Shown here: one piece after another, positions 7,302 to 45,443 of the stretch
How the letters are laid out: each line of letters opens with the position of its first letter
Numbering within the stretch: position 1 is the first letter of the stretch
Assembly (NCBI RefSeq): GCF_003334785.1
Contig: NZ_QOWV01000002.1
Strand: one strand, 5' to 3'
DNA: 64,000 nt
Origin: Escherichia coli
GTDB taxonomy: Bacteria > Pseudomonadota > Gammaproteobacteria > Enterobacterales > Enterobacteriaceae
Translations under genes and position numbers: made by a program
Notes under the pieces: generated by a model
Told to the model about the DNA's origin: nothing
What the model saw: only the letters and a program-made list of their open reading frames with translations
The model's database searches: none

Positions 7302-9893
7302 ATGCATCAATCTGGTTCTGTTTCTCTTTGTCGTTCCGCAATATCTGTTCTGGTGGCTACAGCGTTATATTCACCCATAGCATTGGCATCAACTGTTGAG
7401 TATGGTGAGACAGTTGATGGTGTTGTCCTGGAAAAAGATATCCAGCTGGTTTATGGGACCGCCAATAATACGAAAATCAATCCTGGCGGAGAACAGCATA
7501 TAAAAGAATTTGGTGTAAGTAATAATACTGAAATTAACGGAGGGTATCAGTACATTGAAATGAATGGCGCCGCAGAATACTCAGTATTAAATGACGGTTA
7601 TCAAATTGTTCAAATGGGTGGCGCGGCAAACCAGACTACGCTCAATAATGGTGTGCTACAGGTTTATGGCGCAGCGAATGATACCACGATTAAAGGCGGG
7701 CGCTTAATCGTTGAAAAAGATGGGGGGGCCGTCTTTGTCGCTATCGAAAAGGGAGGACTACTGGAGGTTAAAGAGGGGGGATTTGCATTTGCGGTAGATC
7801 AGAAAGCAGGCGGTGCTATTAAAACAACCACGCGGGCCATGGAGGTATTCGGAACAAACCGTCTCGGTCAGTTCGATATCAAGAATGGTATTGCTAATAA
7901 TATGTTGTTGGAAAACGGCGGAAGTTTGCGAGTTGAAGAAAATGACTTCGCTTATAATACCACTGTAGATAGTGGCGGCTTACTGGAGGTTATGGATGGC
8001 GGGACTGTAACTGGCGTTGATAAAAAAGCAGGCGGAAAATTAATTGTCTCAACGAATGCGCTGGAAGTGAGTGGTCCAAACAGTAAAGGCCAATTTAGTA
8101 TAAAAGATGGTGTGTCAAAAAATTATGAACTGGATGATGGTTCCGGGCTCATTGTTATGGAGGACACGCAGGCCATTGATACTATCCTTGATAAGCATGC
8201 CACTATGCAATCGCTGGGAAAGGATACTGGTACGAAAGTGCAGGCAAATGCGGTATATGATCTCGGTCGATCATATCAGAATGGAAGTATCACGTATTCC
8301 TCAAAAGCCATCTCTGAAAATATGGTTATCAACAATGGCCGCGCTAACGTCTGGGCTGGCACAATGGTTAACGTTTCAGTCAGAGGGAATGATGGCATTC
8401 TTGAGGTCATGAAGCCGCAAATAAATTATGCACCCGCAATGTTGGTGGGTAAGGTAGTGGTTTCTGAGGGCGCTTCTTTTAGAACGCATGGTGCCGTGGA
8501 TACCAGCAAAGCGGACGTTTCGCTCGAAAATAGCGTATGGACCATCATTGCCGATATCACTACGACGAACCAAAACACCCTCCTCAACTTAGCCAACCTT
8601 GCGATGTCTGACGCAAATGTGATTATGATGGATGAGCCAGTGACTCGTTCATCAGTGACGGCAAGTGCGGAAAATTTCATTACGTTGACCACCAATACCC
8701 TGTCGGGAAACGGCAATTTTTATATGCGTACCGATATGGCTAATCATCAGAGCGATCAGCTCAACGTCACCGGTCAGGCAACAGGTGATTTCAAAATATT
8801 CGTGACGGACACCGGTGCCAGCCCGGCAGCAGGAGATAGCCTTACACTGGTAACAACGGGCGGCGGTGATGCTGCATTTACGTTGGGCAATGCCGGAGGC
8901 GTTGTTGATATCGGTACGTATGAATATACCTTGCTGGATAATGGCAACCATAGCTGGAGTCTGGCAGAGAATCGCGCGCAAATTACCCCTTCAACCACTG
9001 ATGTGCTGAATATGGCGGCCGCACAACCGCTGGTATTTGATGCAGAACTGGACACCGTGCGTGAGCGTCTTGGTAGCGTAAAAGGCGTTAGTTACGATAC
9101 GGCGATGTGGAGTTCGGCAATTAACACCCGCAACAACGTGACCACTGATGCGGGAGCTGGTTTTGAGCAAACATTGACGGGCCTGACGCTCGGTATCGAT
9201 AGCCGTTTCTCCCGTGAAGAAAGCAGTACAATTCGCGGCTTGATCTTTGGTTACTCTCATTCTGATATTGGTTTTGATCGCGGCGGCAAAGGTAATATCG
9301 ATAGCTATACCCTGGGGGCTTATGCCGGTTGGGAGCATCAGAACGGTGCCTATGTTGATGGGGTGGTGAAAGTTGACCGTTTTGCCAACACCATCCATGG
9401 CAAGATGAGTAATGGGGCAACAGCGTTTGGCGATTACAATAGTAACGGCGCGGGTGCTCATGTTGAGAGCGGGTTCCGTTGGGTTGACGGATTGTGGAGT
9501 GTTAGACCCTATCTGGCCTTTACCGGCTTTACCACAGATGGTCAGGACTACACGTTATCAAACGGCATGCGCGCGGATGTGGGAAATACCCGGATATTAC
9601 GCGCTGAAGCGGGAACGGCGGTAAGCTATCACATGGACCTGCAAAACGGTACGACGCTGGAACCCTGGCTGAAAGCGGCCGTGCGTCAGGAATACGCCGA
9701 TTCTAACCAGGTGAAAGTTAATGACGATGGCAAATTTAATAATGATGTGGCTGGAACCAGTGGCGTTTATCAGGCTGGTATAAGGTCATCGTTTACCCCG
9801 ACGTTAAGCGGTCATTTGTCAGTCAGCTATGGCAATAGCGCAGGGGTAGAATCGCCGTGGAATACTCAGGCGGGTGTGGTCTGGACGTTCTGA
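7302..9893 (+). CDS. yejO: Autotransporter (type Va) outer membrane protein YejO, apparently intact
   Basis: 863 aa; N-terminal signal-like segment (SAISVLVATALYSPIALA), repetitive Gly/Asn-rich beta-helix-like passenger, C-terminal beta-barrel ending ...AGVVWTF (aromatic terminal residue). Confidence 0.9.
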   Translation: MHQSGSVSLCRSAISVLVATALYSPIALASTVEYGETVDGVVLEKDIQLVYGTANNTKINPGGEQHIKEFGVSNNTEINGGYQYIEMNGAAEYSVLNDGYQIVQMGGAANQTTLNNGVLQVYGAANDTTIKGGRLIVEKDGGAVFVAIEKGGLLEVKEGGFAFAVDQKAGGAIKTTTRAMEVFGTNRLGQFDIKNGIANNMLLENGGSLRVEENDFAYNTTVDSGGLLEVMDGGTVTGVDKKAGGKLIVSTNALEVSGPNSKGQFSIKDGVSKNYELDDGSGLIVMEDTQAIDTILDKHATMQSLGKDTGTKVQANAVYDLGRSYQNGSITYSSKAISENMVINNGRANVWAGTMVNVSVRGNDGILEVMKPQINYAPAMLVGKVVVSEGASFRTHGAVDTSKADVSLENSVWTIIADITTTNQNTLLNLANLAMSDANVIMMDEPVTRSSVTASAENFITLTTNTLSGNGNFYMRTDMANHQSDQLNVTGQATGDFKIFVTDTGASPAAGDSLTLVTTGGGDAAFTLGNAGGVVDIGTYEYTLLDNGNHSWSLAENRAQITPSTTDVLNMAAAQPLVFDAELDTVRERLGSVKGVSYDTAMWSSAINTRNNVTTDAGAGFEQTLTGLTLGIDSRFSREESSTIRGLIFGYSHSDIGFDRGGKGNIDSYTLGAYAGWEHQNGAYVDGVVKVDRFANTIHGKMSNGATAFGDYNSNGAGAHVESGFRWVDGLWSVRPYLAFTGFTTDGQDYTLSNGMRADVGNTRILRAEAGTAVSYHMDLQNGTTLEPWLKAAVRQEYADSNQVKVNDDGKFNNDVAGTSGVYQAGIRSSFTPTLSGHLSVSYGNSAGVESPWNTQAGVVWTF

Positions 9894-32420: not shown

Positions 32421-32687
32421 GCTGGTCGATCACTGGAAGAGGAAGACGCGGAGTTTACGCTGCTTGTCAGAAAATAAACAGACAGCGAAATCAAAAGCGC
32501 CACGAATAGTCAAAATGCCATTTCACTGTTGCTGATTGGCTGCTGACGCTGCTGAAATGAAATTGCTGATAACGGATTTTCCCATCAGCAATTAGGAAAA
32601 ATGGCAAAAAATTGTGCAGCACATCAAACTTTTGCTCATAACTTTACGGCTTTCCTTGCGTGCTGAAACAGAAGTATTATGCTTTCT

Positions 32688-36605: not shown

Positions 36606-36986
36606 ATTTGATGAGCGCAAAGAGAATGACCGGTTTGTGAATGTAATTTTATGAATTTAAATGGTTTTATCTTTCAGTAGAAACTTCAAACGTTCATCAA
36701 ACACTCAGGTTATTTCCTCAAGGGCAGATTATTTTCTGCCCTTTTTTATTGTTCTGTTCTGTGCATCCCGTCACAAATTCCTCGCTTTTGTAATTCAGGC
36801 ATTTAATCGCATTTTGTGAGCCTGCTCAAATCTGCCCATTTTGCCTCTCTGGCGGTAATTTACTTTACGTAAAACATGCATACTATGAGCACATGTTTAA
36901 ATATGAACACATGTTTAAACCGTCTTTGCAGTATCTATATTCTTGTGGATTGACAGGGTTGGTAATTTTTTACCAGAGGACGTGCT

Positions 36987-37928
36987 ATGCGCGAAAAGGA
37001 TTATGTCGTAATTATAGGTTCGGCGAATATTGATGTCGCCGGATATTCACATGAATCATTAAATTATGCGGATTCAAATCCAGGTAAAATAAAATTTACG
37101 CCTGGTGGAGTAGGGCGCAATATTGCACAAAACCTGGCGTTGCTGGGTAACAAAGCCTGGCTACTGAGCGCCGTAGGCAGTGATTTTTATGGTCAATCGC
37201 TGCTAACGCAAACCAATCAATCTGGCGTTTATGTCGATAAATGCCTGATTGTGCCGGGAGAAAATACGTCGAGTTATTTATCATTACTCGATAATACCGG
37301 TGAAATGCTGGTTGCTATAAATGACATGAATATTAGCAACGCTATTACAGCTGAATATCTCGCACAGCACGGTGAATTTATTCAGAGGGCAAAGGTCATT
37401 GTCGCGGACTGTAATATCAGTGAAGAGGCACTGGCATGGATTCTGGATAATGCCGCCAACGTACCCGTATTTGTCGATCCGGTTTCGGCATGGAAATGTG
37501 TCAAAGTGCGCGACCGTCTAAATCAGATCCACACTCTCAAGCCAAACCGCCTTGAAGCGGAAACCCTGAGTGGGATTGCGCTGTCAGGGCGTGAAGATGT
37601 GGCAAAAGTTGCTGCCTGGTTCCATCAACATGGCCTGAACCGACTGGTATTGAGCATGGGCGGCGACGGCGTTTATTACAGCGATATCAGCGGTGAAAGT
37701 GGCTGGTCTGCGCCGATCAAAACCAATGTTATTAATGTTACCGGAGCGGGCGATGCCATGATGGCGGGACTTGCTTCGTGTTGGGTAGACGGAATGCCGT
37801 TTGCCGAATCTGTTCGTTTCGCACAGGGATGTTCGTCAATGGCGCTCTCCTGTGAATACACCAATAACCCCGATTTATCGATTGCCAACGTTATATCGTT
37901 AGTGGAGAACGCAGAATGTCTGAATTAA
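36987..37928 (+). CDS. psuK: Pseudouridine kinase PsuK (YeiC), PfkB family
   Basis: 313 aa, MREKDYVVIIGSANIDVAG...GGVGRNIAQNLALLG... Confidence 0.93.
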   Translation: MREKDYVVIIGSANIDVAGYSHESLNYADSNPGKIKFTPGGVGRNIAQNLALLGNKAWLLSAVGSDFYGQSLLTQTNQSGVYVDKCLIVPGENTSSYLSLLDNTGEMLVAINDMNISNAITAEYLAQHGEFIQRAKVIVADCNISEEALAWILDNAANVPVFVDPVSAWKCVKVRDRLNQIHTLKPNRLEAETLSGIALSGREDVAKVAAWFHQHGLNRLVLSMGGDGVYYSDISGESGWSAPIKTNVINVTGAGDAMMAGLASCWVDGMPFAESVRFAQGCSSMALSCEYTNNPDLSIANVISLVENAECLN

Positions 37929-38854
37929 AAATTTCCCCTGAATTATTACAAATTTCCCCGGAAGTGCAGGACGCTTTAAAAAACAAAAAACCGGTTGTGG
38001 CGCTGGAATCGACCATTATTTCTCACGGGATGCCGTTCCCACAAAATGCCCAGACCGCAATTGAAGTTGAAGAAACTATTCGTAAACAGGGCGCTGTACC
38101 TGCCACGATCGCCATTATTGGCGGCGTGATGAAAGTGGGGTTAAGCAAAGAAGAAATTGAATTACTGGGTCGTGAAGGGCATAACGTGACCAAAGTTAGT
38201 CGTCGCGATTTACCTTTTGTTGTTGCCGCCGGAAAAAATGGCGCAACCACTGTGGCTTCAACGATGATTATTGCGGCGCTTGCCGGAATTAAAGTATTTG
38301 CCACCGGGGGAATTGGTGGTGTGCATCGCGGGGCGGAACATACCTTCGATATTTCTGCCGATTTGCAAGAACTGGCAAATACTAATGTCACCGTTGTTTG
38401 TGCCGGGGCGAAATCTATTCTCGATTTAGGATTAACCACTGAGTATTTAGAAACCTTCGGTGTGCCGTTAATTGGCTATCAGACTAAAGCGCTGCCTGCG
38501 TTTTTCTGCCGCACCAGCCCGTTTGACGTCAGCATTCGTCTCGACAGCGCCAGCGAAATTGCCCGTGCAATGGCGGTGAAATGGCAAAGCGGTCTGAACG
38601 GTGGCCTCGTGGTAGCGAACCCGATCCCGGAACAGTTTGCTATGCCGGAACACACTATCAATGCGGCGATCGATCAGGCGGTAGCTGAAGCTGAAGCTCA
38701 GGGAGTCATTGGTAAAGAAAGTACGCCATTCCTGCTGGCGCGCGTTGCTGAACTGACCGGCGGTGACAGCCTGAAATCCAACATCCAGCTGGTGTTCAAC
38801 AACGCCATTCTGGCGAGCGAAATTGCCAAAGAATATCAGCGTCTCGCGGGTTAA
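37916..38854 (+). CDS. psuG: Pseudouridine-5'-phosphate glycosidase PsuG (YeiN)
   Basis: 312 aa, MSELKISPELLQISPEVQDALKNKKPVVALESTIISHGMP...; 13-nt overlap with psuK. Confidence 0.93.
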   Translation: MSELKISPELLQISPEVQDALKNKKPVVALESTIISHGMPFPQNAQTAIEVEETIRKQGAVPATIAIIGGVMKVGLSKEEIELLGREGHNVTKVSRRDLPFVVAAGKNGATTVASTMIIAALAGIKVFATGGIGGVHRGAEHTFDISADLQELANTNVTVVCAGAKSILDLGLTTEYLETFGVPLIGYQTKALPAFFCRTSPFDVSIRLDSASEIARAMAVKWQSGLNGGLVVANPIPEQFAMPEHTINAAIDQAVAEAEAQGVIGKESTPFLLARVAELTGGDSLKSNIQLVFNNAILASEIAKEYQRLAG

Positions 38855-38947
38855 TTTCTGACGGGCAGAAAGCCGTCGCCCGTACTCATCAAGCATACCA
38901 AAACCTGGCGCTGACGCCGGGTTTACCGGCATGAAGGGAAAATCATT

Positions 38948-40198
38948 ATGGATATAATGAGAAGTGTTGTGGGGATGGTGGTGTTACTGGCAATAGCATT
39001 TCTGTTGTCAGTGAATAAAAAGAGCATCAGTTTGCGCACGGTTGGAGCCGCACTGCTGCTGCAAATCGCTATTGGTGGCATCATGCTCTACTTCCCACCG
39101 GGAAAATGGGCAGTAGAACAGGCGGCATTAGGCGTTCATAAAGTGATGTCTTACAGTGATGCCGGTAGCGCCTTCATTTTTGGTTCGCTGGTTGGGCCGA
39201 AAATGGATGTCCTGTTTGACGGTGCGGGTTTTATCTTCGCCTTTCGCGTACTTCCGGCGATTATTTTCGTTACTGCGCTCATCAGTCTGCTGTACTACAT
39301 TGGCGTGATGGGGCTGCTGATTCGCATCCTTGGCAGCATTTTCCAGAAAGCCCTCAACATCAGCAAAATCGAATCTTTTGTTGCGGTTACTACTATTTTC
39401 CTCGGGCAAAATGAGATCCCGGCGATCGTTAAACCGTTTATCGATCGCATGAATCGCAACGAGTTGTTTACCGCAATTTGTAGCGGGATGGCGTCCATTG
39501 CTGGTTCGATGATGATTGGTTATGCCGGAATGGGCGTACCAATTGACTACCTGTTAGCGGCATCGCTGATGGCGATCCCTGGCGGGATTTTGTTTGCACG
39601 TATTCTTAGCCCGGCAACCGAGCCTTCGCAGGTCACATTTGAAAATCTGTCGTTCAGCGAAACGCCGCCAAAAAGCTTTATCGAAGCGGCGGCGAGCGGT
39701 GCGATGACCGGGCTAAAAATCGCCGCTGGTGTGGCGACGGTGGTAATGGCGTTTGTCGCAATTATTGCGCTGATCAACGGCATTATCGGCGGAATTGGCG
39801 GCTGGTTTGGTTTCGCCAATGCCTCTCTGGAAAGTATTTTTGGCTATGTGCTGGCACCGCTGGCGTGGATCATGGGTGTGGACTGGAGTGATGCCAATCT
39901 TGCGGGTAGCCTGATTGGGCAGAAACTGGCGATTAACGAATTCGTCGCTTACCTGAGTTTCTCCCCATACCTGCAAACGGGCGGCACGCTGGAAGTGAAA
40001 ACCATTGCGATTATCTCCTTTGCGCTTTGTGGTTTTGCTAACTTTGGTTCTATCGGTGTTGTCGTTGGCGCATTTTCGGCTATTTCGCCAAAACGCGCGC
40101 CGGAAATCGCCCAGCTTGGTTTACGGGCGCTGGCAGCAGCAACGCTTTCCAACCTGATGAGTGCGACTATTGCCGGGTTCTTTATTGGTCTGGCGTAA
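38948..40198 (+). CDS. psuT: NupC-family nucleoside transporter PsuT (YeiM)
   Basis: 416 aa, close paralog of the nupX product at 42138-43388. Confidence 0.92.
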   Translation: MDIMRSVVGMVVLLAIAFLLSVNKKSISLRTVGAALLLQIAIGGIMLYFPPGKWAVEQAALGVHKVMSYSDAGSAFIFGSLVGPKMDVLFDGAGFIFAFRVLPAIIFVTALISLLYYIGVMGLLIRILGSIFQKALNISKIESFVAVTTIFLGQNEIPAIVKPFIDRMNRNELFTAICSGMASIAGSMMIGYAGMGVPIDYLLAASLMAIPGGILFARILSPATEPSQVTFENLSFSETPPKSFIEAAASGAMTGLKIAAGVATVVMAFVAIIALINGIIGGIGGWFGFANASLESIFGYVLAPLAWIMGVDWSDANLAGSLIGQKLAINEFVAYLSFSPYLQTGGTLEVKTIAIISFALCGFANFGSIGVVVGAFSAISPKRAPEIAQLGLRALAAATLSNLMSATIAGFFIGLA

Positions 40199-40268: not shown

Positions 40269-40928
40269 TTACTGCATCATCCCGGAGAATTTATTCTCCG
40301 GGTCCATCTCCAGCGCCAGTCCTGACAACTGCTTTCTGTTTTTAATGAGATATCCTTTCTTGCTTTTAATTAATAAACCGTCGTGAATGAACTGCGCGAG
40401 AACATATAAAAGATGTCGATAAGAAACGCCTAAATACTCTGCCGCTTGCGTATGCTTTTCGTGATAAAGATCACCTTCCTGCGAGAGTAATATAAATGCT
40501 GCCAGGCGATTCACTAACGGAAATGATTGATTCTGAGTTAAAGAAACAATATTACGATAATTTTTATGACTTAAGGTGACGCAGAGTTTTCGTAAAAATA
40601 GCGTGTCGTTTAATAACAGCGGACGGTAATGTTTCATAGGGAGCGCAAGGCACCAACACTCTTCAATAGCCTGCACCGCACGCGGTTCATGGTCTTTATC
40701 GATTAACTCAATCTCGCCAATAAAACAGGGGGCGGCAAAGAAATCGATCAGCGACACGCGACCATTAGCTAGCGTGGCGTAAAGCCTGGCGCGGCCTCGC
40801 GTCAGGTAAAACAGCCAGGACGGCTGTTGCCCTTCCTGCACAATGTAGTCACGCGCTAAAAAATGAAACAGCCGCGTATCGGCTGAAACATCCGTTAAAA
40901 AGCAATCCTTAAACGCGGATTCACTCAT
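40269..40928 (-). CDS. yeiL: Crp/Fnr-family transcriptional regulator YeiL
   Basis: 219 aa from the ATG at 40928 ([11 protein letters not shown]...); cNMP-binding-like domain plus C-terminal HTH; track ORF starts 13 codons upstream. Confidence 0.88.
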
Positions 40929-41096
40929 CAATTGCTGCTTAAGATCATTATTGTGGATTTCTTTCACGATGTTTATCCGCTATGAGATTTCTCATATTTA
41001 GCATACGTACGCTGTTGTTAAGATTCAATCATCGGCCCGGTCGAATTTTCTTTGCTGTAGAAAAAATAACGCAACTGGAAACAGAGGAAATAAACA

Positions 41097-42038
41097 ATGG
41101 AAAAGAGAAAAATTATTCTGGATTGTGATCCGGGTCATGATGATGCTATTGCTATAATGATGGCGGCGAAACATCCGGCAATAGATTTATTAGGCATCAC
41201 TATTGTAGCGGGTAATCAGACGCTTGATAAAACATTAATTAATGGCCTGAATGTTTGCCAGAAACTGGAGATTAATGTTCCGGTTTATGCGGGGATGCCG
41301 CAGCCCATTATGCGTCAACAAATCGTTGCCGATAATATTCACGGTGAAACCGGACTGGATGGCCCGGTATTCGAGCCGCTGACCCGCCAGGCAGAAAGCA
41401 CTCATGCGGTGAAATATATCATTGATACCCTGATGGCAAGCGATGGCGATATCACTCTGGTGCCGGTTGGTCCGCTTTCAAATATCGCGGTGGCAATGCG
41501 TATGCAACCCGCGATCCTGCCCAAAATCCGTGAAATTGTGCTAATGGGCGGCGCTTACGGTACAGGCAACTTCACGCCATCTGCCGAGTTCAACATCTTT
41601 GCCGACCCGGAAGCCGCACGCGTAGTGTTCACCTCCGGCGTTCCATTAGTGATGATGGGCCTCGATCTCACCAACCAGACCGTTTGCACCCCGGACGTGA
41701 TTGCTCGGATGGAAAGGGCAGGCGGCCCCGCCGGAGAGCTGTTCAGCGACATCATGAACTTCACTCTCAAAACGCAGTTCGAAAACTACGGCCTTGCTGG
41801 CGGCCCGGTGCACGACGCCACCTGCATCGGTTATCTGATTAACCCTGATGGCATTAAAACCCAGGAGATGTACGTCGAAGTGGACGTCAACAGTGGCCCT
41901 TGCTATGGGCGTACCGTCTGCGACGAGCTGGGCGTTCTTGGCAAGCCCGCCAATACCAAAGTCGGCATCACTATTGATACAGACTGGTTCTGGGGATTAG
42001 TCGAAGAGTGCGTGCGCGGCTACATCAAAACCCATTAA
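41097..42038 (+). CDS. rihB: Pyrimidine-specific ribonucleoside hydrolase RihB (YeiK)
   Basis: 313 aa with IU-NH family N-terminal motif [11 protein letters not shown]. Confidence 0.95.
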
Positions 42039-42137
42039 GTGTTGATAACAAGCCGGGCCGGTATCGCAAGATGCAGGCCTGGCTATTTCTGATGGGCAGA
42101 AAGCCGTCGCCCAATATGACATGAAGAGATAATCACT

Positions 42138-43388
42138 ATGGATGTCATGAGAAGTGTTCTGGGAATGGTGGTATTGCTGACGATTGCGTTTTTACTGTCA
42201 GTAAACAAGAAGAAGATCAGCCTGCGTACCGTTGGCGCGGCGTTAGTGTTACAGGTCGTGATTGGCGGCATTATGCTTTGGTTACCGCCAGGGCGTTGGG
42301 TCGCTGAAAAAGTCGCTTTTGGCGTGCATAAAGTGATGGCGTACAGCGACGCGGGTAGCGCATTTATCTTCGGTTCTCTGGTCGGACCGAAAATGGATAC
42401 CTTATTTGATGGTGCAGGATTTATCTTTGGTTTCAGGGTGTTACCGGCAATTATCTTCGTCACCGCGCTGGTGAGTATTCTCTACTACATCGGTGTGATG
42501 GGGATTTTAATTCGAATTCTCGGCGGTATCTTCCAGAAAGCATTAAATATCAGCAAGATCGAGTCATTCGTCGCGGTCACCACCATTTTCCTCGGGCAAA
42601 ACGAAATTCCGGCAATCGTCAAACCCTTTATCGATCGTCTGAATCGCAATGAATTATTTACAGCGATTTGTAGTGGCATGGCCTCGATTGCTGGTTCGAC
42701 AATGATTGGTTACGCCGCACTGGGCGTGCCTGTGGAATATCTGCTGGCGGCATCATTAATGGCGATCCCTGGCGGGATCTTGTTTGCCCGCCTGTTAAGC
42801 CCGGCAACGGAATCTTCGCAGGTTTCCTTTAATAACCTCTCTTTCACCGAAACACCGCCAAAAAGCATTATTGAAGCCGCTGCGACAGGGGCAATGACCG
42901 GGCTGAAAATCGCCGCAGGTGTGGCAACAGTGGTGATGGCATTTGTTGCAATAATTGCGTTGATTAACGGTATTATCGGCGGCGTTGGTGGCTGGTTTGG
43001 TTTTGAACATGCCTCGCTGGAGTCCATTTTAGGTTACCTGCTGGCTCCACTGGCGTGGGTGATGGGTGTGGACTGGAGTGATGCGAATCTTGCCGGGAGT
43101 TTGATTGGACAGAAACTGGCAATAAATGAATTTGTCGCTTATCTCAATTTCTCACCCTATCTGCAAACGGCTGGCACTCTCGATGCTAAAACTGTGGCGA
43201 TTATTTCCTTCGCGTTGTGCGGTTTCGCTAACTTTGGTTCTATCGGGGTGGTGGTGGGGGCGTTTTCTGCGGTTGCGCCACACCGTGCGCCGGAAATCGC
43301 CCAGCTTGGTTTACGGGCGCTGGCGGCGGCGACGCTTTCCAACTTGATGAGTGCGACCATTGCCGGGTTCTTTATTGGTTTAGCTTGA
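42138..43388 (+). CDS. nupX: NupC-family nucleoside permease NupX (YeiJ)
   Basis: 416 aa, paralog of PsuT. Confidence 0.92.
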   Translation: MDVMRSVLGMVVLLTIAFLLSVNKKKISLRTVGAALVLQVVIGGIMLWLPPGRWVAEKVAFGVHKVMAYSDAGSAFIFGSLVGPKMDTLFDGAGFIFGFRVLPAIIFVTALVSILYYIGVMGILIRILGGIFQKALNISKIESFVAVTTIFLGQNEIPAIVKPFIDRLNRNELFTAICSGMASIAGSTMIGYAALGVPVEYLLAASLMAIPGGILFARLLSPATESSQVSFNNLSFTETPPKSIIEAAATGAMTGLKIAAGVATVVMAFVAIIALINGIIGGVGGWFGFEHASLESILGYLLAPLAWVMGVDWSDANLAGSLIGQKLAINEFVAYLNFSPYLQTAGTLDAKTVAIISFALCGFANFGSIGVVVGAFSAVAPHRAPEIAQLGLRALAAATLSNLMSATIAGFFIGLA

Positions 43389-43395
43389 GTGTCAT

Positions 43396-43488
43396 TGCCT
43401 GATGCGCAAGCTTATCAGGCCTACATTTACTTGCTGAAATTGCCTGATTTGTAGGCCGGATAAGACGCGTTAAGCGTCGCATCCGGCA
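43396..43488. repeat. BIME: two inverted REP elements downstream of nupX and yeiI
   Basis: gcctgatgcgcaagcttatcaggcctac and gtaggccggataagacgcgttaagcgtcgcatccggca. Confidence 0.8.
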
Positions 43489-43494
43489 ACATTG

Positions 43495-44583
43495 TTACAC
43501 CATTGGCACTAATGAAAGCGCGTTATCGGCAGACAGGGTAGGGTTGTTTAAGCTGCCGCTGGCGCGCGAAATTGCCGCGCAGGCTACCGCAAAACGGGCG
43601 CTGTCGCGGAAACTGTATCCTTCAAGAAAGCTATATACCAGGCCCGCCATAAAACCATCGTCAGCACCAAAACTGTCTACTGTCGTATGCGCTGGCGCGG
43701 TCAGCAAAAATTGTTCTCCATCCTTTTCGCTGCAATAAACTGACTCATCGGGCAAATAAACAAACAGTTGCTGAACACCTTGCTGATGCAATGCATTCAC
43801 TGCGGTATTACGGTCAGCATCGCTGGTGATCGCCTGTCCCCATAAAATTTCCAGCTCCGGTAAAGTGGGTTTCAGGGTGTGAATATGCACCAGCCAGTGT
43901 TTGATTTTGCCCGCTTTGAATTCTGAAACGGTATCGACAAACACCGGGATTTCATCAGCGAGGGTAAAGACCCATTCCAGCGCCTCGGCTGTCAGGTTGC
44001 AATCAGCCAGTACCACGCCCGCATGACGAAGTAAATCGCGCGACCCGTTCAGTAGTTGCGGTGTCAACTGTTCCAGCAGATGGGTATCGTTAATCGCCAG
44101 CACGGTTTGATCGTCTCGATTGGCAATTGCCAGATACGTCGATGTGCTTTGACCATGCAAACGAACGCAGCCGGAGACATTCACGCCGGCACGGCGCGTT
44201 TCTTCCAGGAGCATTTCGCCATAAAAGTCATCGCCAATCACTGAAAGCAAATGGACGTCACGGCCTAACAGCGCCAGATTGTGGGCGATGTTGCGTCCCA
44301 CGCCGCCCGCTGAGCAATGAATTGTACCGGGATGAGAAGCCGATTGCGGGTAACGGATATCCGCCATCCCGCGAATATCCATATTGATTGTCCCCACCAC
44401 TACGCAGTATTCCTGCTCGGTGAGAATGTAACCTTTGCCTTTAATCCGGCCTTTGCGCATTAAATCCATAATATGCGCCGCAACGCGCGAACGGCTGATT
44501 TGCAGCATGTCCGCAATTTCGTTCTGCTGAATCAGCGGGTTACGCCGTAAAATTGCAAGGATCTCCTTTTCCCGGTTATTCAT
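43495..44583 (-). CDS. yeiI: HTH-domain-fused PfkB-family kinase YeiI (substrate unknown)
   Basis: 362 aa; N-terminal winged-helix-like segment (MNNREKEILAILRRNPLIQQNEIADMLQISRSRVAAHIMDL), then a PfkB kinase domain with GGVGRNIAHNLALLG, paralogous to PsuK. Confidence 0.9.
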   Translation of the reverse strand: MNNREKEILAILRRNPLIQQNEIADMLQISRSRVAAHIMDLMRKGRIKGKGYILTEQEYCVVVGTINMDIRGMADIRYPQSASHPGTIHCSAGGVGRNIAHNLALLGRDVHLLSVIGDDFYGEMLLEETRRAGVNVSGCVRLHGQSTSTYLAIANRDDQTVLAINDTHLLEQLTPQLLNGSRDLLRHAGVVLADCNLTAEALEWVFTLADEIPVFVDTVSEFKAGKIKHWLVHIHTLKPTLPELEILWGQAITSDADRNTAVNALHQQGVQQLFVYLPDESVYCSEKDGEQFLLTAPAHTTVDSFGADDGFMAGLVYSFLEGYSFRDSARFAVACAAISRASGSLNNPTLSADNALSLVPMV

Positions 44584-44585
44584 CT

Positions 44586-45443
44586 TCAGGCTACCGCTTT
44601 TTCAGTTTGTTGCGCTTTCAGCCAGGCGATCTCTTCTGCCCAGATATCCGGGTTGATGGTTTCGAGGATCAGCGGAATGCCGTCGAAACGGTCGTCCTGC
44701 ATGATCCAGCGGAACGCATCATGACCGATATTGCCTTCACCGAGGCTATGATGGCGGTCAACGCGGCTGCCAAAGGTGCTTTTCGCATCGTTAAGGTGCA
44801 TCCCGCGCAGATACTTAAAGCCGACAGTACGGGCAAAATCCGCGAATGTTTTCTCGCATTCGGCTGGAGTACGCAAATCATACCCGGCAGCGAAAGCATG
44901 GCAGGTATCAATGCAGACGCCGACGCGGGATTTATCTTCCACGCCGTCGATAATCGCCGCGAGATGTTCGAATTTAAACCCTAAGTTACTGCCCTGACCG
45001 GCGGTGTTTTCTATCACCGCTGTCACACCTTGAGTTTTATCCAGCGCAATGTTGATGGATTCGGCAATACGCGCAAGGCAATCCTCTTCTGAAATCTGCA
45101 TCAGATGGCTGCCAGGGTGGAAGTTGAGCAAAGAAAGCCCCAGCTGTTCGCAACGCTGCATTTCATCTATAAAGGCATCGCGCGATTTTTCCAGAGCTTC
45201 AGTGACCGGATGTCCGAGGTTAATCAGATAACTGTCGTGGGGAAGAATTTGCGCCGATGTGTAGTGATATTTTTCACAGGCGGCTTTGAATTCATCGATG
45301 GTTTGCGTCGTGAGCGGTGCGGCACGCCACTGACGTTGGTTTTTGGTGAACAAGGCAAACGCGGTTGCGTCGATTTCGGCGGCGCGAATTGCGGCATTTG
45401 CCAGACCGCCAGCAGCACTAACGTGCGCTCCAATGTATTTCAT
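44586..45443 (-). CDS. nfo: Endonuclease IV (AP endonuclease)
   Basis: 285 aa, [39 protein letters not shown]... Confidence 0.95.

Follow-up and report, generated by a model that had tools for sequence, protein, structure and literature searches.

YeiI of Escherichia coli, a helix-turn-helix relative of pseudouridine kinase, as a putative pseudouridine-responsive repressor of the psuKGT operon

Introduction

Enzyme-derived one-component regulators are already known and include BirA, NadR, RbkR, the ROK repressors and NrtR. The ROK repressors Mlc and NagC combine an N-terminal winged helix with a ligand-sensor domain resembling sugar kinases and have enzyme paralogues devoid of helix-turn-helix (HTH). 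RbkR, an archaeal bifunctional riboflavin kinase and regulator, controls genes of its own pathway and was identified by comparative genomics of operators (PMC5397151). NrtR, a Nudix-related regulator of NAD metabolism, senses a metabolite of its pathway (PMC2330246). The searched literature includes neither a characterised regulator derived from a PfkB kinase nor any description of a pseudouridine regulator. The DNA analysed here (hereafter the window) is a 64-kb stretch of an Escherichia coli chromosome (contig NZ_QOWV01000002.1) that carries yeiI, one of the remaining function-unknown genes of E. coli K-12, close to the psuK-psuG-psuT (psuKGT) operon. The function of YeiI is stated as unknown in PMC9061257 and PMC12506659, in agreement with an initial annotation of the window that regarded its substrate as not established.

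The comparison of this locus across about 85 species suggests that YeiI is a specific regulator of psuKGT, most likely a pseudouridine-responsive repressor, which would derive from the splitting of an ancestral kinase/repressor. We give this model a probability of roughly 0.6. The hypothesis offered is that two defined boxes of the psuK promoter are bound by YeiI, which would respond to pseudouridine. YeiI shows two attributes of a one-component repressor: a predicted DNA-binding domain fused to an enzyme-like domain, and a conserved predicted operator, on genes of the same pathway, that co-occurs with the regulator.

Architecture of YeiI

The main features of YeiI and its predicted target are as follows (positions are those of the window).

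43495–44583, minus strand: yeiI coding sequence, encoding HTH_24 and PfkB domains (Pfam, NCBIfam NF007416)
44422–44583, minus strand: predicted winged-helix domain, residues 1–54, with the recognition helix at residues 31–43 (SRSRVAAHIMDLM) (Pfam HTH_24, AlphaFold2)
43540–44412, minus strand: PfkB (pseudouridine-kinase-like) domain, residues 58–348 (Pfam, AlphaFold2 superposition)
36987–40198, plus strand: psuK-psuG-psuT operon, predicted target of YeiI (gene context)

The yeiI open reading frame (1089 bp, 362 aa) is 100% identical to yeiI of strain H3, where it is annotated as a 'sugar kinase'. The gene was found in 5423 of 5426 complete E. coli genomes and is full length in 5421 of the 5423 that have a match. 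The N-terminus of the protein matches the Pfam profile HTH_24 (residues 1–48, E 2.3e-10) and is followed by a PfkB domain (PF00294, residues 58–348, E 2.5e-67). In the AlphaFold2 model (predicted local distance difference test, pLDDT, 88; predicted TM-score, pTM, 0.83), three helices at residues 3–14, 20–27 and 31–43 precede a short beta hairpin, and the N-terminal domain is thus modelled as a winged helix and not as a non-HTH fold. The kinase part of the model superposes on E. coli pseudouridine kinase structures with a target-normalised TM-score of 0.94–0.95, ribokinases being matched too.

YeiI and PsuK are collinear, share 39% identity over 307 aa (E 7e-76) and both carry the block GGVGRNIA[HQ]NLALLG, which upholds the view of the initial annotation that YeiI is an HTH-fused paralogue of PsuK. 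YeiI scores above the cutoff of the YeiI equivalog family (NCBIfam NF007416/PRK09954, 'sugar kinase'; 811 bits versus 561, residues 1–362) and below that of the PsuK equivalog family (NCBIfam NF007355, EC 2.7.1.83; 255 bits versus 540).

Gene neighbourhoods across species

Eighty loci, taken from one genome per species, were fetched and annotated by tblastn with the proteins of the window. The HTH_24-PfkB architecture is widespread, with more than 100 full-length clusters at 50% identity aligning from residue 1. Beyond Enterobacteriaceae, psuG is directly preceded by the HTH-PfkB gene and is often followed by a CNT transporter gene. This arrangement is found in Yersinia, Serratia, Hafnia, Photorhabdus, Gilliamella, Pasteurellaceae, Shewanella, Vibrio, Paludibacterium, Vogesella and Hydrogenophaga, and the adjacency to psuG was also confirmed on Pfam-annotated contigs. 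The psuG-linked fused protein (hereafter HTH-PsuK) is the kinase of its operon, and its kinase domain is nearer to E. coli PsuK than to YeiI (~60% versus ~49% identity in Yersinia).

A different organization is found in the 29 Enterobacteriaceae species that have an intact yeiI. Their loci carry lysP, yeiE, yeiH, nfo and yeiI and then, on the opposite strand, psuT, psuG, psuK and fruA, and their PsuK has no HTH. No other gene separates yeiI from the convergent psuT-psuG-psuK in most enteric genera. In the window, the order is fruA, psuK, psuG, psuT (plus strand), yeiL (minus), rihB, nupX (plus), yeiI, nfo, yeiH (minus), yeiE and lysP, with an additional block between psuT and yeiI:

40269–43388, yeiL on the minus strand, rihB and nupX on the plus strand: lineage-restricted insertion, outside the predicted YeiI system (locus comparison)

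Only Escherichia, one Citrobacter locus (L011), Phytobacter diazotrophicus (L023) and Entomohabitans (L032) have this yeiL-rihB-nupX block between psuT and yeiI; it is absent from E. albertii, most Citrobacter, Enterobacter, Klebsiella and Leclercia. It is a patchily distributed insertion. The initial annotation had described yeiI as convergent to rihB-nupX, NupX as a close paralogue of PsuT and YeiL as a Crp/Fnr-type protein. All of this is accurate, as nupX ends at 43388 facing yeiI, NupX is 88% identical to PsuT and YeiL has the domains cNMP_binding and HTH_Crp_2. The second module, parallel to psuKGT, that it had drawn from yeiI and rihB-nupX does not survive the comparison, psuKGT being the conserved neighbour. 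As a side observation, nupX appears to have arisen by duplication of psuT.

The Pectobacteriaceae Affinibrenneria and Brenneria also have a YeiI-like gene, which is not next to nfo but runs convergently to a psuK-psuG-psuT operon whose kinase has no HTH. Taken as a whole, these locus arrangements indicate that the conserved partner of yeiI is psuKGT and neither rihB-nupX nor nfo. The gene is never part of the psuG operon in these loci: it is carried by the opposite strand, after nfo or other genes.

Two other types of loci deserve mention. In Citrobacter koseri NCTC10786 (L033), yeiI carries a frameshift, and only partial matches remain for psuK, psuG and the transporter gene; the whole locus therefore seems to decay together. 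Six Xenorhabdus loci (L054, L060–L062, L066–L067) encode an extra HTH-PfkB paralogue of 355–365 aa with canonical NxxE and GAGD motifs, which is not beside psuG and has only degenerate boxes upstream (see the next section).

Operator-like boxes upstream of psuK

Two 12-bp palindromic boxes with the core AAACAnnTGTTT precede psuK (consensus ATAAACAyrTGTTTAT).

36887–36898, plus strand: predicted operator box 1 (GAGCACATGTTT), predicted YeiI site (motif comparison)
36905–36916, plus strand: predicted operator box 2 (GAACACATGTTT), 18 bp from box 1 (motif comparison)

The exact sequence CACATGTTTAAA occurs at 36890 and 36908 upstream of E. coli psuK and has no other exact copy in the window. The Yersinia HTH-psuK gene is preceded by the same motif, and tandem palindromic boxes are present in all upstream regions displayed, 28 from enteric psuK genes and 46 from psuG-linked HTH-psuK genes. 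In 73 of these 74 regions, the two top-scoring boxes within 200 nt are spaced by 18 or 19 bp; in the last one, from Entomohabitans, the box pair lies ~210 nt upstream of psuK. The boxes of Enterobacterales, Pasteurellales and Orbales are 18 bp apart, and most of those of Shewanella, Vibrio and Neisseriales 19 bp. In a few loci, from Lonepinella, Vibrio and one Paludibacterium, the pairs are weak and do not reach the scan threshold.

A scan of all 1.58 Mb of fetched loci, with a matrix trained on sites that it then finds and therefore partly circular, detected, at its threshold, no more than one pair in any locus, in every case upstream of psuK, and none of 200 shuffled windows contained a pair. 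When the matrix was built from non-enteric sites only, the hits at 36903 and 36885 still ranked first and second in the window. With this same matrix, the best scores in the yeiL-rihB, rihB-nupX, nupX-yeiI, yeiH-nfo and yeiH-yeiE spacers range from -12.9 to -0.2 bits. Since the best scores there are negative, autoregulation of yeiI and regulation of rihB-nupX are rejected. The initial annotation had seen in YeiI a possible substrate-sensing autoregulator or regulator of the neighbouring genes. The idea of a ligand-sensing regulator of neighbours is retained as the best reading; autoregulation and control of rihB, nupX or yeiL find no support, the box pair occurring once in 64 kb, upstream of psuK.

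The boxes follow the HTH. The pair is absent from four distinct loci (L087/L088, L091, L092, L093) that carry an HTH-less psuK-psuG without any HTH-PfkB gene in the 6–7 kb covered on each side and that come from Aeromonas, a Pasteurellaceae metagenome-assembled genome, a Bartonella sp. and a metagenomic contig sampled twice; it is also absent from a fifth contig of only 1.8 kb (L089). The pair is present in Brenneria, whose genome encodes a YeiI-like protein. The HTH of YeiI is 54–72% identical to those of HTH-PsuK proteins, versus 39–49% for the kinase part, and all share the recognition-helix core SRSxVAxHIMxL. It is the only HTH of its type in the window: tblastn searches with the HTHs of Yersinia and Shewanella matched yeiI alone and revealed no HTH remnant ahead of E. 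coli psuK. This operator footprint suggests that YeiI binds DNA in a sequence-specific manner.

Alternatively, a different transcription factor might bind the box pair, YeiI having other targets or no DNA binding at all. The boxes are indeed AT-rich palindromes, and one yeiI-positive genome lacks psuK (L007, see below). This explanation would nevertheless have to account for boxes that track the HTH-PfkB family in Shewanella, Vibrio, Neisseriales, Pasteurellales, Orbales and Enterobacterales and that are missing where no HTH-PfkB gene is nearby. Furthermore, the species with fused proteins show no other consistently adjacent regulator, and most box-bearing enteric loci are devoid of yeiL. We know of no E. 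coli regulator with this box motif. We regard this explanation as unlikely, with about one chance in eight.

Three additional observations concern the boxes. A covariation between YeiI-specific recognition-helix residues (R33, A36, D40) and the G/A difference at the outer position of the boxes was considered and dropped, since both G and A are found there in enterics. A single box-like sequence, TCAAACTTTTGCTCAT, is found at 32624–32639 upstream of the fru genes (12.5–14 bits) with no partner box; about one such single match is expected by chance in the window. Finally, the annotated HTH-PsuK proteins of Yersinia, Serratia and Hafnia begin with an extension, MFKNKQVS(I/N)M (MLKNKQVFM in Gilliamella), that is encoded by the boxes themselves (ATGTTTAAAAACAAACAAGTGTCC; L002/L003 at 7993–8030, L035, L039–L046, L048–L049). 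Because of this overlap with the operator boxes, the start codons are probably mis-called, and the real start is probably the downstream ATG, which would give MTSREKQIL.

The inferred psuK promoter

36859–36886, plus strand: inferred psuK promoter, -35 TTTACT (36859–36864), 16-nt spacer, -10 TACTAT (36881–36886) (read by hand, conserved in enterics)
36815–36830, plus strand: CRP-like site TGTGAGCCTGCTCAAA, centred at about -70 from the inferred transcription start (consensus match only)

The TTTACT/TACTAT promoter lies immediately upstream of box 1. An automatic consensus promoter scan did not list it and returned instead a weak candidate, TTTAAA-16-TATATT (36914–36941). The former is preferred because it is conserved across genera and is struck by a published single-nucleotide polymorphism (SNP). 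A study of long-term stationary-phase evolution counted an A to C change between psuK and fruA (-126/+297) in three of four populations (PMC7858067). Both offsets map to 36861, the third base of TTTACT, where the change is T to G on the psuK strand and gives TTGACT, nearer to the -35 consensus. The same SNP is also among the differences between the parental strains and the reference (PMC7858067), so that true parallel evolution at 36861 is uncertain. With the promoter anchored by this SNP, the boxes would extend from about -8 to +26, where a repressor would be expected to bind.

The CRP-like site matches 8–9 of 10 consensus positions and is found at an unchanged position upstream of all 28 enteric psuK genes, which suggests that pseudouridine catabolism is under the control of cyclic AMP and CRP. 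Similar TCACA-containing sites are seen upstream of many HTH-psuK genes.

Ligand pocket and phosphotransfer motifs

The motifs were compared among 110 family members from the fetched loci, with 29 YeiI orthologues set against 73 PsuK-type proteins. Three sites that differ in YeiI are located as follows.

43855–43866, minus strand: TLPE in place of NxxE (Thr240 = PsuK Asn187, putative Mg site) (alignment, PMC9247573)
43741–43752, minus strand: PDES, at the position of the GxxG loop (alignment, PMC9247573)
43657–43668, minus strand: GADD in place of GAGD (alignment)

On the ligand side, the PsuK contacts N14, D16, S30, Y97, N112, N143 and K170, i.e. all polar contacts with pseudouridine, are kept in all 29 orthologues. 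They include the three hallmark recognition residues Ser30, Asn143 and Lys170 (YeiI S83, N196 and K223). The roles of these PsuK residues were defined by crystallography and mutagenesis (PMC9061257). The sole changed contact is the hydrophobic M114, replaced by Thr in 29/29. The initial annotation had proposed another modified nucleoside as the possible substrate; the conservation of the pocket disfavours this proposal.

On the ATP/Mg side, the GG dipeptide of the PfkB family is present (GGVGRN, residues 93–98, invariant in the alignment). In contrast, NxxE is replaced by TLPE at residues 240–243. The position of PsuK Asn187 is Thr in 28 and Ala in one of the 29 YeiI orthologues versus Asn in 73/73 PsuK-type proteins, and one orthologue has MARQD at the TxxE site. 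GAGD is replaced by GADD in all orthologues (G255D in PsuK numbering; Gly in 73/73 PsuK-type proteins): Asp308 takes the place of the second Gly, the anion-hole position of PfkB proteins, and the catalytic base Asp309 is retained. The GxxG of PsuK (G225/G228), invariant in the 73 PsuK-type proteins, is lost in all 29 YeiI orthologues. In PsuK, G225-G228 is described as a small ATP-binding loop 'GxxG', and a putative Mg density is located around D164, N187, E190 and D256 (PMC9247573). All psuG-linked kinases, whether fused or HTH-less, carry NxxE and GAGD. In an unbiased comparison, 19 positions with a conservation of 93% or more among the 73 PsuK-type proteins proved to be replaced in all YeiI orthologues, including N187T, G255D, S223, G225, G228, D29A, M107T and M114T (PsuK numbering).

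As read from the alignments, the ligand pocket of YeiI is thus intact and its phosphotransfer side altered, a pattern that does not by itself prove inactivity. It fits a sensor that would bind pseudouridine with poor or no turnover, and it makes the active kinase supposed by the initial annotation doubtful, three ATP/Mg motifs being changed in all 29 orthologues. Across the family, degenerate catalytic motifs are not significantly enriched in HTH-fused members (24/111 versus 2/28 HTH-less members, Fisher p = 0.10). Several of the 'degenerate' cases look like frameshifted fragments.

YeiI might also be an active kinase for a nucleoside other than pseudouridine, its HTH regulating yeiI itself or rihB-nupX. 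The retention of the catalytic Asp309 and of Lys238, the purifying selection on the kinase domain (see the next section) and the fixation in all orthologues of three differences near the base pocket (D29A, M114T, M107T) are compatible with such an activity, and the strictly conserved GADD could mean altered rather than lost chemistry. On the other hand, the three hallmark recognition residues and the ribose contacts are all kept, and the changes affect the Mg site, the GxxG loop and the glycine of GAGD. The regulatory part fares no better, as the matrix scan found no operator-like site upstream of nfo/yeiI, rihB, nupX or yeiL and most yeiI-carrying genomes lack rihB-nupX. We consider this explanation unlikely, at odds slightly better than those of a different factor on the boxes.

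A redundant second pseudouridine kinase (EC 2.7.1.83), as predicted by machine-learning annotators, is improbable, only a gene without function being less likely. PsuK is indeed the closest characterised relative of YeiI, the pseudouridine pocket is conserved and some sources name homologues 'pseudouridine kinase'. This prediction is nonetheless difficult to reconcile with a score of less than half the PsuK equivalog cutoff, with the changed ATP/Mg motifs and with the absence of operon linkage to psuG. It was rejected in PMC12506659, since PsuK carries the activity and a psuK mutant cannot use pseudouridine. As YeiI lacks two PfkB motifs, falls below the PsuK cutoff and is not in a psuG operon, it should not be filed as a pseudouridine kinase, and the present analysis cautions against this machine-learning label.

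Selection, phylogeny and alleles

The ratio of non-synonymous to synonymous substitution rates (dN/dS) of yeiI is 0.06–0.10 in comparisons with E. albertii, Citrobacter and a second E. coli allele. It amounts to 0.03–0.05 for the HTH and 0.08–0.11 for the kinase domain. As these values are low and similar to those of psuK, yeiI is not decaying. A decaying relic of a duplication, devoid of present function, would explain the degenerate catalytic motifs, the long branch described below and the frameshift in C. koseri. However, both domains have a low dN/dS, almost all E. coli genomes with a match keep the gene full length, the substitutions are identical in 29 species, and in C. koseri psuK, psuG and the transporter gene are fragmentary as well. 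This is by far the least probable of the explanations considered.

In a distance-based neighbour-joining tree of the kinase domain, YeiI and the Affinibrenneria protein form one clade and enteric PsuK another, with 99–100% bootstrap each (100% for the YeiI clade). YeiI is on the longer branch, its distance to Yersinia HTH-PsuK being 0.86 versus 0.57 for PsuK.

Two deeply divergent yeiI alleles exist in E. coli: 2060 of the 5423 genomes carry one with ~81% DNA identity to the window allele (85% at the protein level; comparison of 43344–44640 of the window with locus L086). The divergence is confined to yeiI (dS 0.91 versus 0.015–0.12 in nfo, psuK, psuG, psuT and yeiH) and is steepest in the central kinase domain (65–79% identity per 100 nt). 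GADD and TxxE are found in both alleles, and their operators do not differ. The divergent alleles could correspond to an old imported segment or to a long-lived polymorphism.

Transcription context of yeiI

44586–45443, minus strand: nfo (endonuclease IV), probably on the same transcript as yeiI (adjoins yeiI in the 29 sampled Enterobacteriaceae species with intact yeiI)

The nfo stop codon (44586) is only 2 nt from the yeiI ATG (44583), a proximity that the initial annotation had missed. The gap is 0–8 nt in nearly all other Enterobacteriaceae, the exception being Entomohabitans (~90 nt). With 2 nt between the two genes, yeiI is probably co-transcribed with nfo and would thus be on the same transcript as this oxidative-stress-inducible gene. 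A constitutive RpoD promoter located between nfo and yeiI is among those listed by genomic SELEX (systematic evolution of ligands by exponential enrichment; PMC3946193). A weak promoter-like site is also seen inside nfo, at 44877–44904.

A model for the origin and action of YeiI

The evolution of this system can be viewed as follows. The ancestral state would be an HTH-PsuK protein encoded by the first gene of a psuK-psuG(-psuT) operon, as in many Gamma- and Betaproteobacteria, and presumably acting both as kinase and as autorepressor. In an ancestor of Enterobacteriaceae and some Pectobacteriaceae, its gene would have been duplicated. One duplicate would have lost the HTH and remained an enzyme, PsuK. 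The other one, YeiI, would have kept the HTH and the pseudouridine pocket, acquired altered ATP/Mg motifs and moved to the opposite strand beside the operon.

Combined with data on the promoter, the following mode of action can be drawn. YeiI dimers bound to the two boxes (about -8 to +26 of the psuK promoter) would block RNA polymerase. The binding of pseudouridine would close the kinase-domain dimer, shift the two HTHs and release the DNA, and CRP would probably add catabolite control. The PsuK dimer closes from ~66 to ~51 Angstrom on pseudouridine binding through Ser30 of the partner subunit (PMC9061257). As the HTH of YeiI is attached directly to the domain that would close, the binding of the ligand could plausibly be relayed in this way to the release of the DNA. 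By analogy with this closure, and considering the conserved pocket, DNA binding by YeiI would be modulated by pseudouridine.

Extended to the whole family, the model is more tentative, with chances somewhat short of even. HTH-PsuK proteins may form a large family of bifunctional kinase/repressors of pseudouridine catabolism across Proteobacteria and probably beyond, whose two functions would have been divided in Enterobacteriaceae between PsuK, purely an enzyme, and YeiI, a sensor-repressor with impaired catalysis.

Several points weigh against YeiI being a repressor of psuKGT. In Escherichia sp. MOD1-EC7003 (L007), yeiI is intact, psuK and psuT are deleted and psuG is partial. The counterparts in YeiI of PsuK K185 and of the catalytic base D256 (Lys238 and Asp309) are retained in all 29 orthologues, and YeiI may still be a kinase. 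The circularity of the locus-wide scan is only partly offset by the matrix built from non-enteric sites, because the best single score of the latter, 17.8 bits at 36903 (13.5 bits at 36885), lies within the range of the best scores of shuffled windows (mean 14, highest 21). The operator scans were confined to the window and the fetched loci. The control loci lacking the boxes were covered over only ~6–7 kb to either side, and a gene for an HTH partner might lie farther away in those genomes. A different factor could also bind the boxes. The neighbour-joining tree did not settle the placement of the YeiI and PsuK clades relative to the fusions of Yersiniaceae and Pasteurellaceae. Lastly, the searched literature holds no report of DNA binding or pseudouridine binding by YeiI or of an effect of yeiI on psuKGT, and no functional study of YeiI, PsuR, or a pseudouridine regulator or regulon.

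Significance

If the model is correct, YeiI and PsuK would provide a well-resolved example of an enzyme/regulator fusion split into two genes, and YeiI together with its 36-bp operator would be a ready-made pseudouridine biosensor. In practice, the analysis is relevant to the building of pseudouridine biosensors and to strains engineered to make pseudouridine for mRNA vaccines. Pseudouridine is abundant in urine, and an isolate adapted to the urinary tract is reported to up-regulate yeiC/yeiN (PMC2928814).

Comparison with known systems

The closest described protein is PsuK itself (PUKI, YeiC; PDB 7VKP, 7VTD, 7VVA), which shares with YeiI the fold, the polar pseudouridine and ribose contacts, Lys185 and the catalytic Asp. 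Unlike PsuK, YeiI has an extra 54-aa winged helix, TxxE and GADD, a lost GxxG and Thr in place of Met114, and is not encoded in a psuG operon. The HTH-PsuK fusions of Yersinia, Serratia, Photorhabdus, Pasteurellaceae, Shewanella, Vibrio and Neisseriales, which are annotated as PfkB or carbohydrate kinases, have the two-domain architecture of YeiI and an HTH 54–72% identical to its own, and their genes are preceded by the same operator motif, with the same spacing, as enteric psuK. In contrast to YeiI, they keep NxxE and GAGD, are encoded by the first gene of the psu operon and are presumably bifunctional.

The other likenesses are between different folds. Like YeiI, RbkR is a winged helix fused to a small-molecule kinase (PMC5397151), but it has the fold of a CTP-dependent riboflavin kinase and not that of PfkB, is still an active enzyme and shows no split between enzyme and sensor. 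NrtR associates a winged helix with an enzyme-like domain whose catalytic residues are degenerate (PMC2330246), as YeiI would do, but its domain is a Nudix fold, its HTH is C-terminal and its pathway is different. Mlc and NagC, whose sensor domains have the ROK/actin-like ATPase fold and not the PfkB/ribokinase-like one, share with YeiI the same general plan: an N-terminal winged helix, a kinase-like domain as putative ligand sensor and an enzyme paralogue without HTH.

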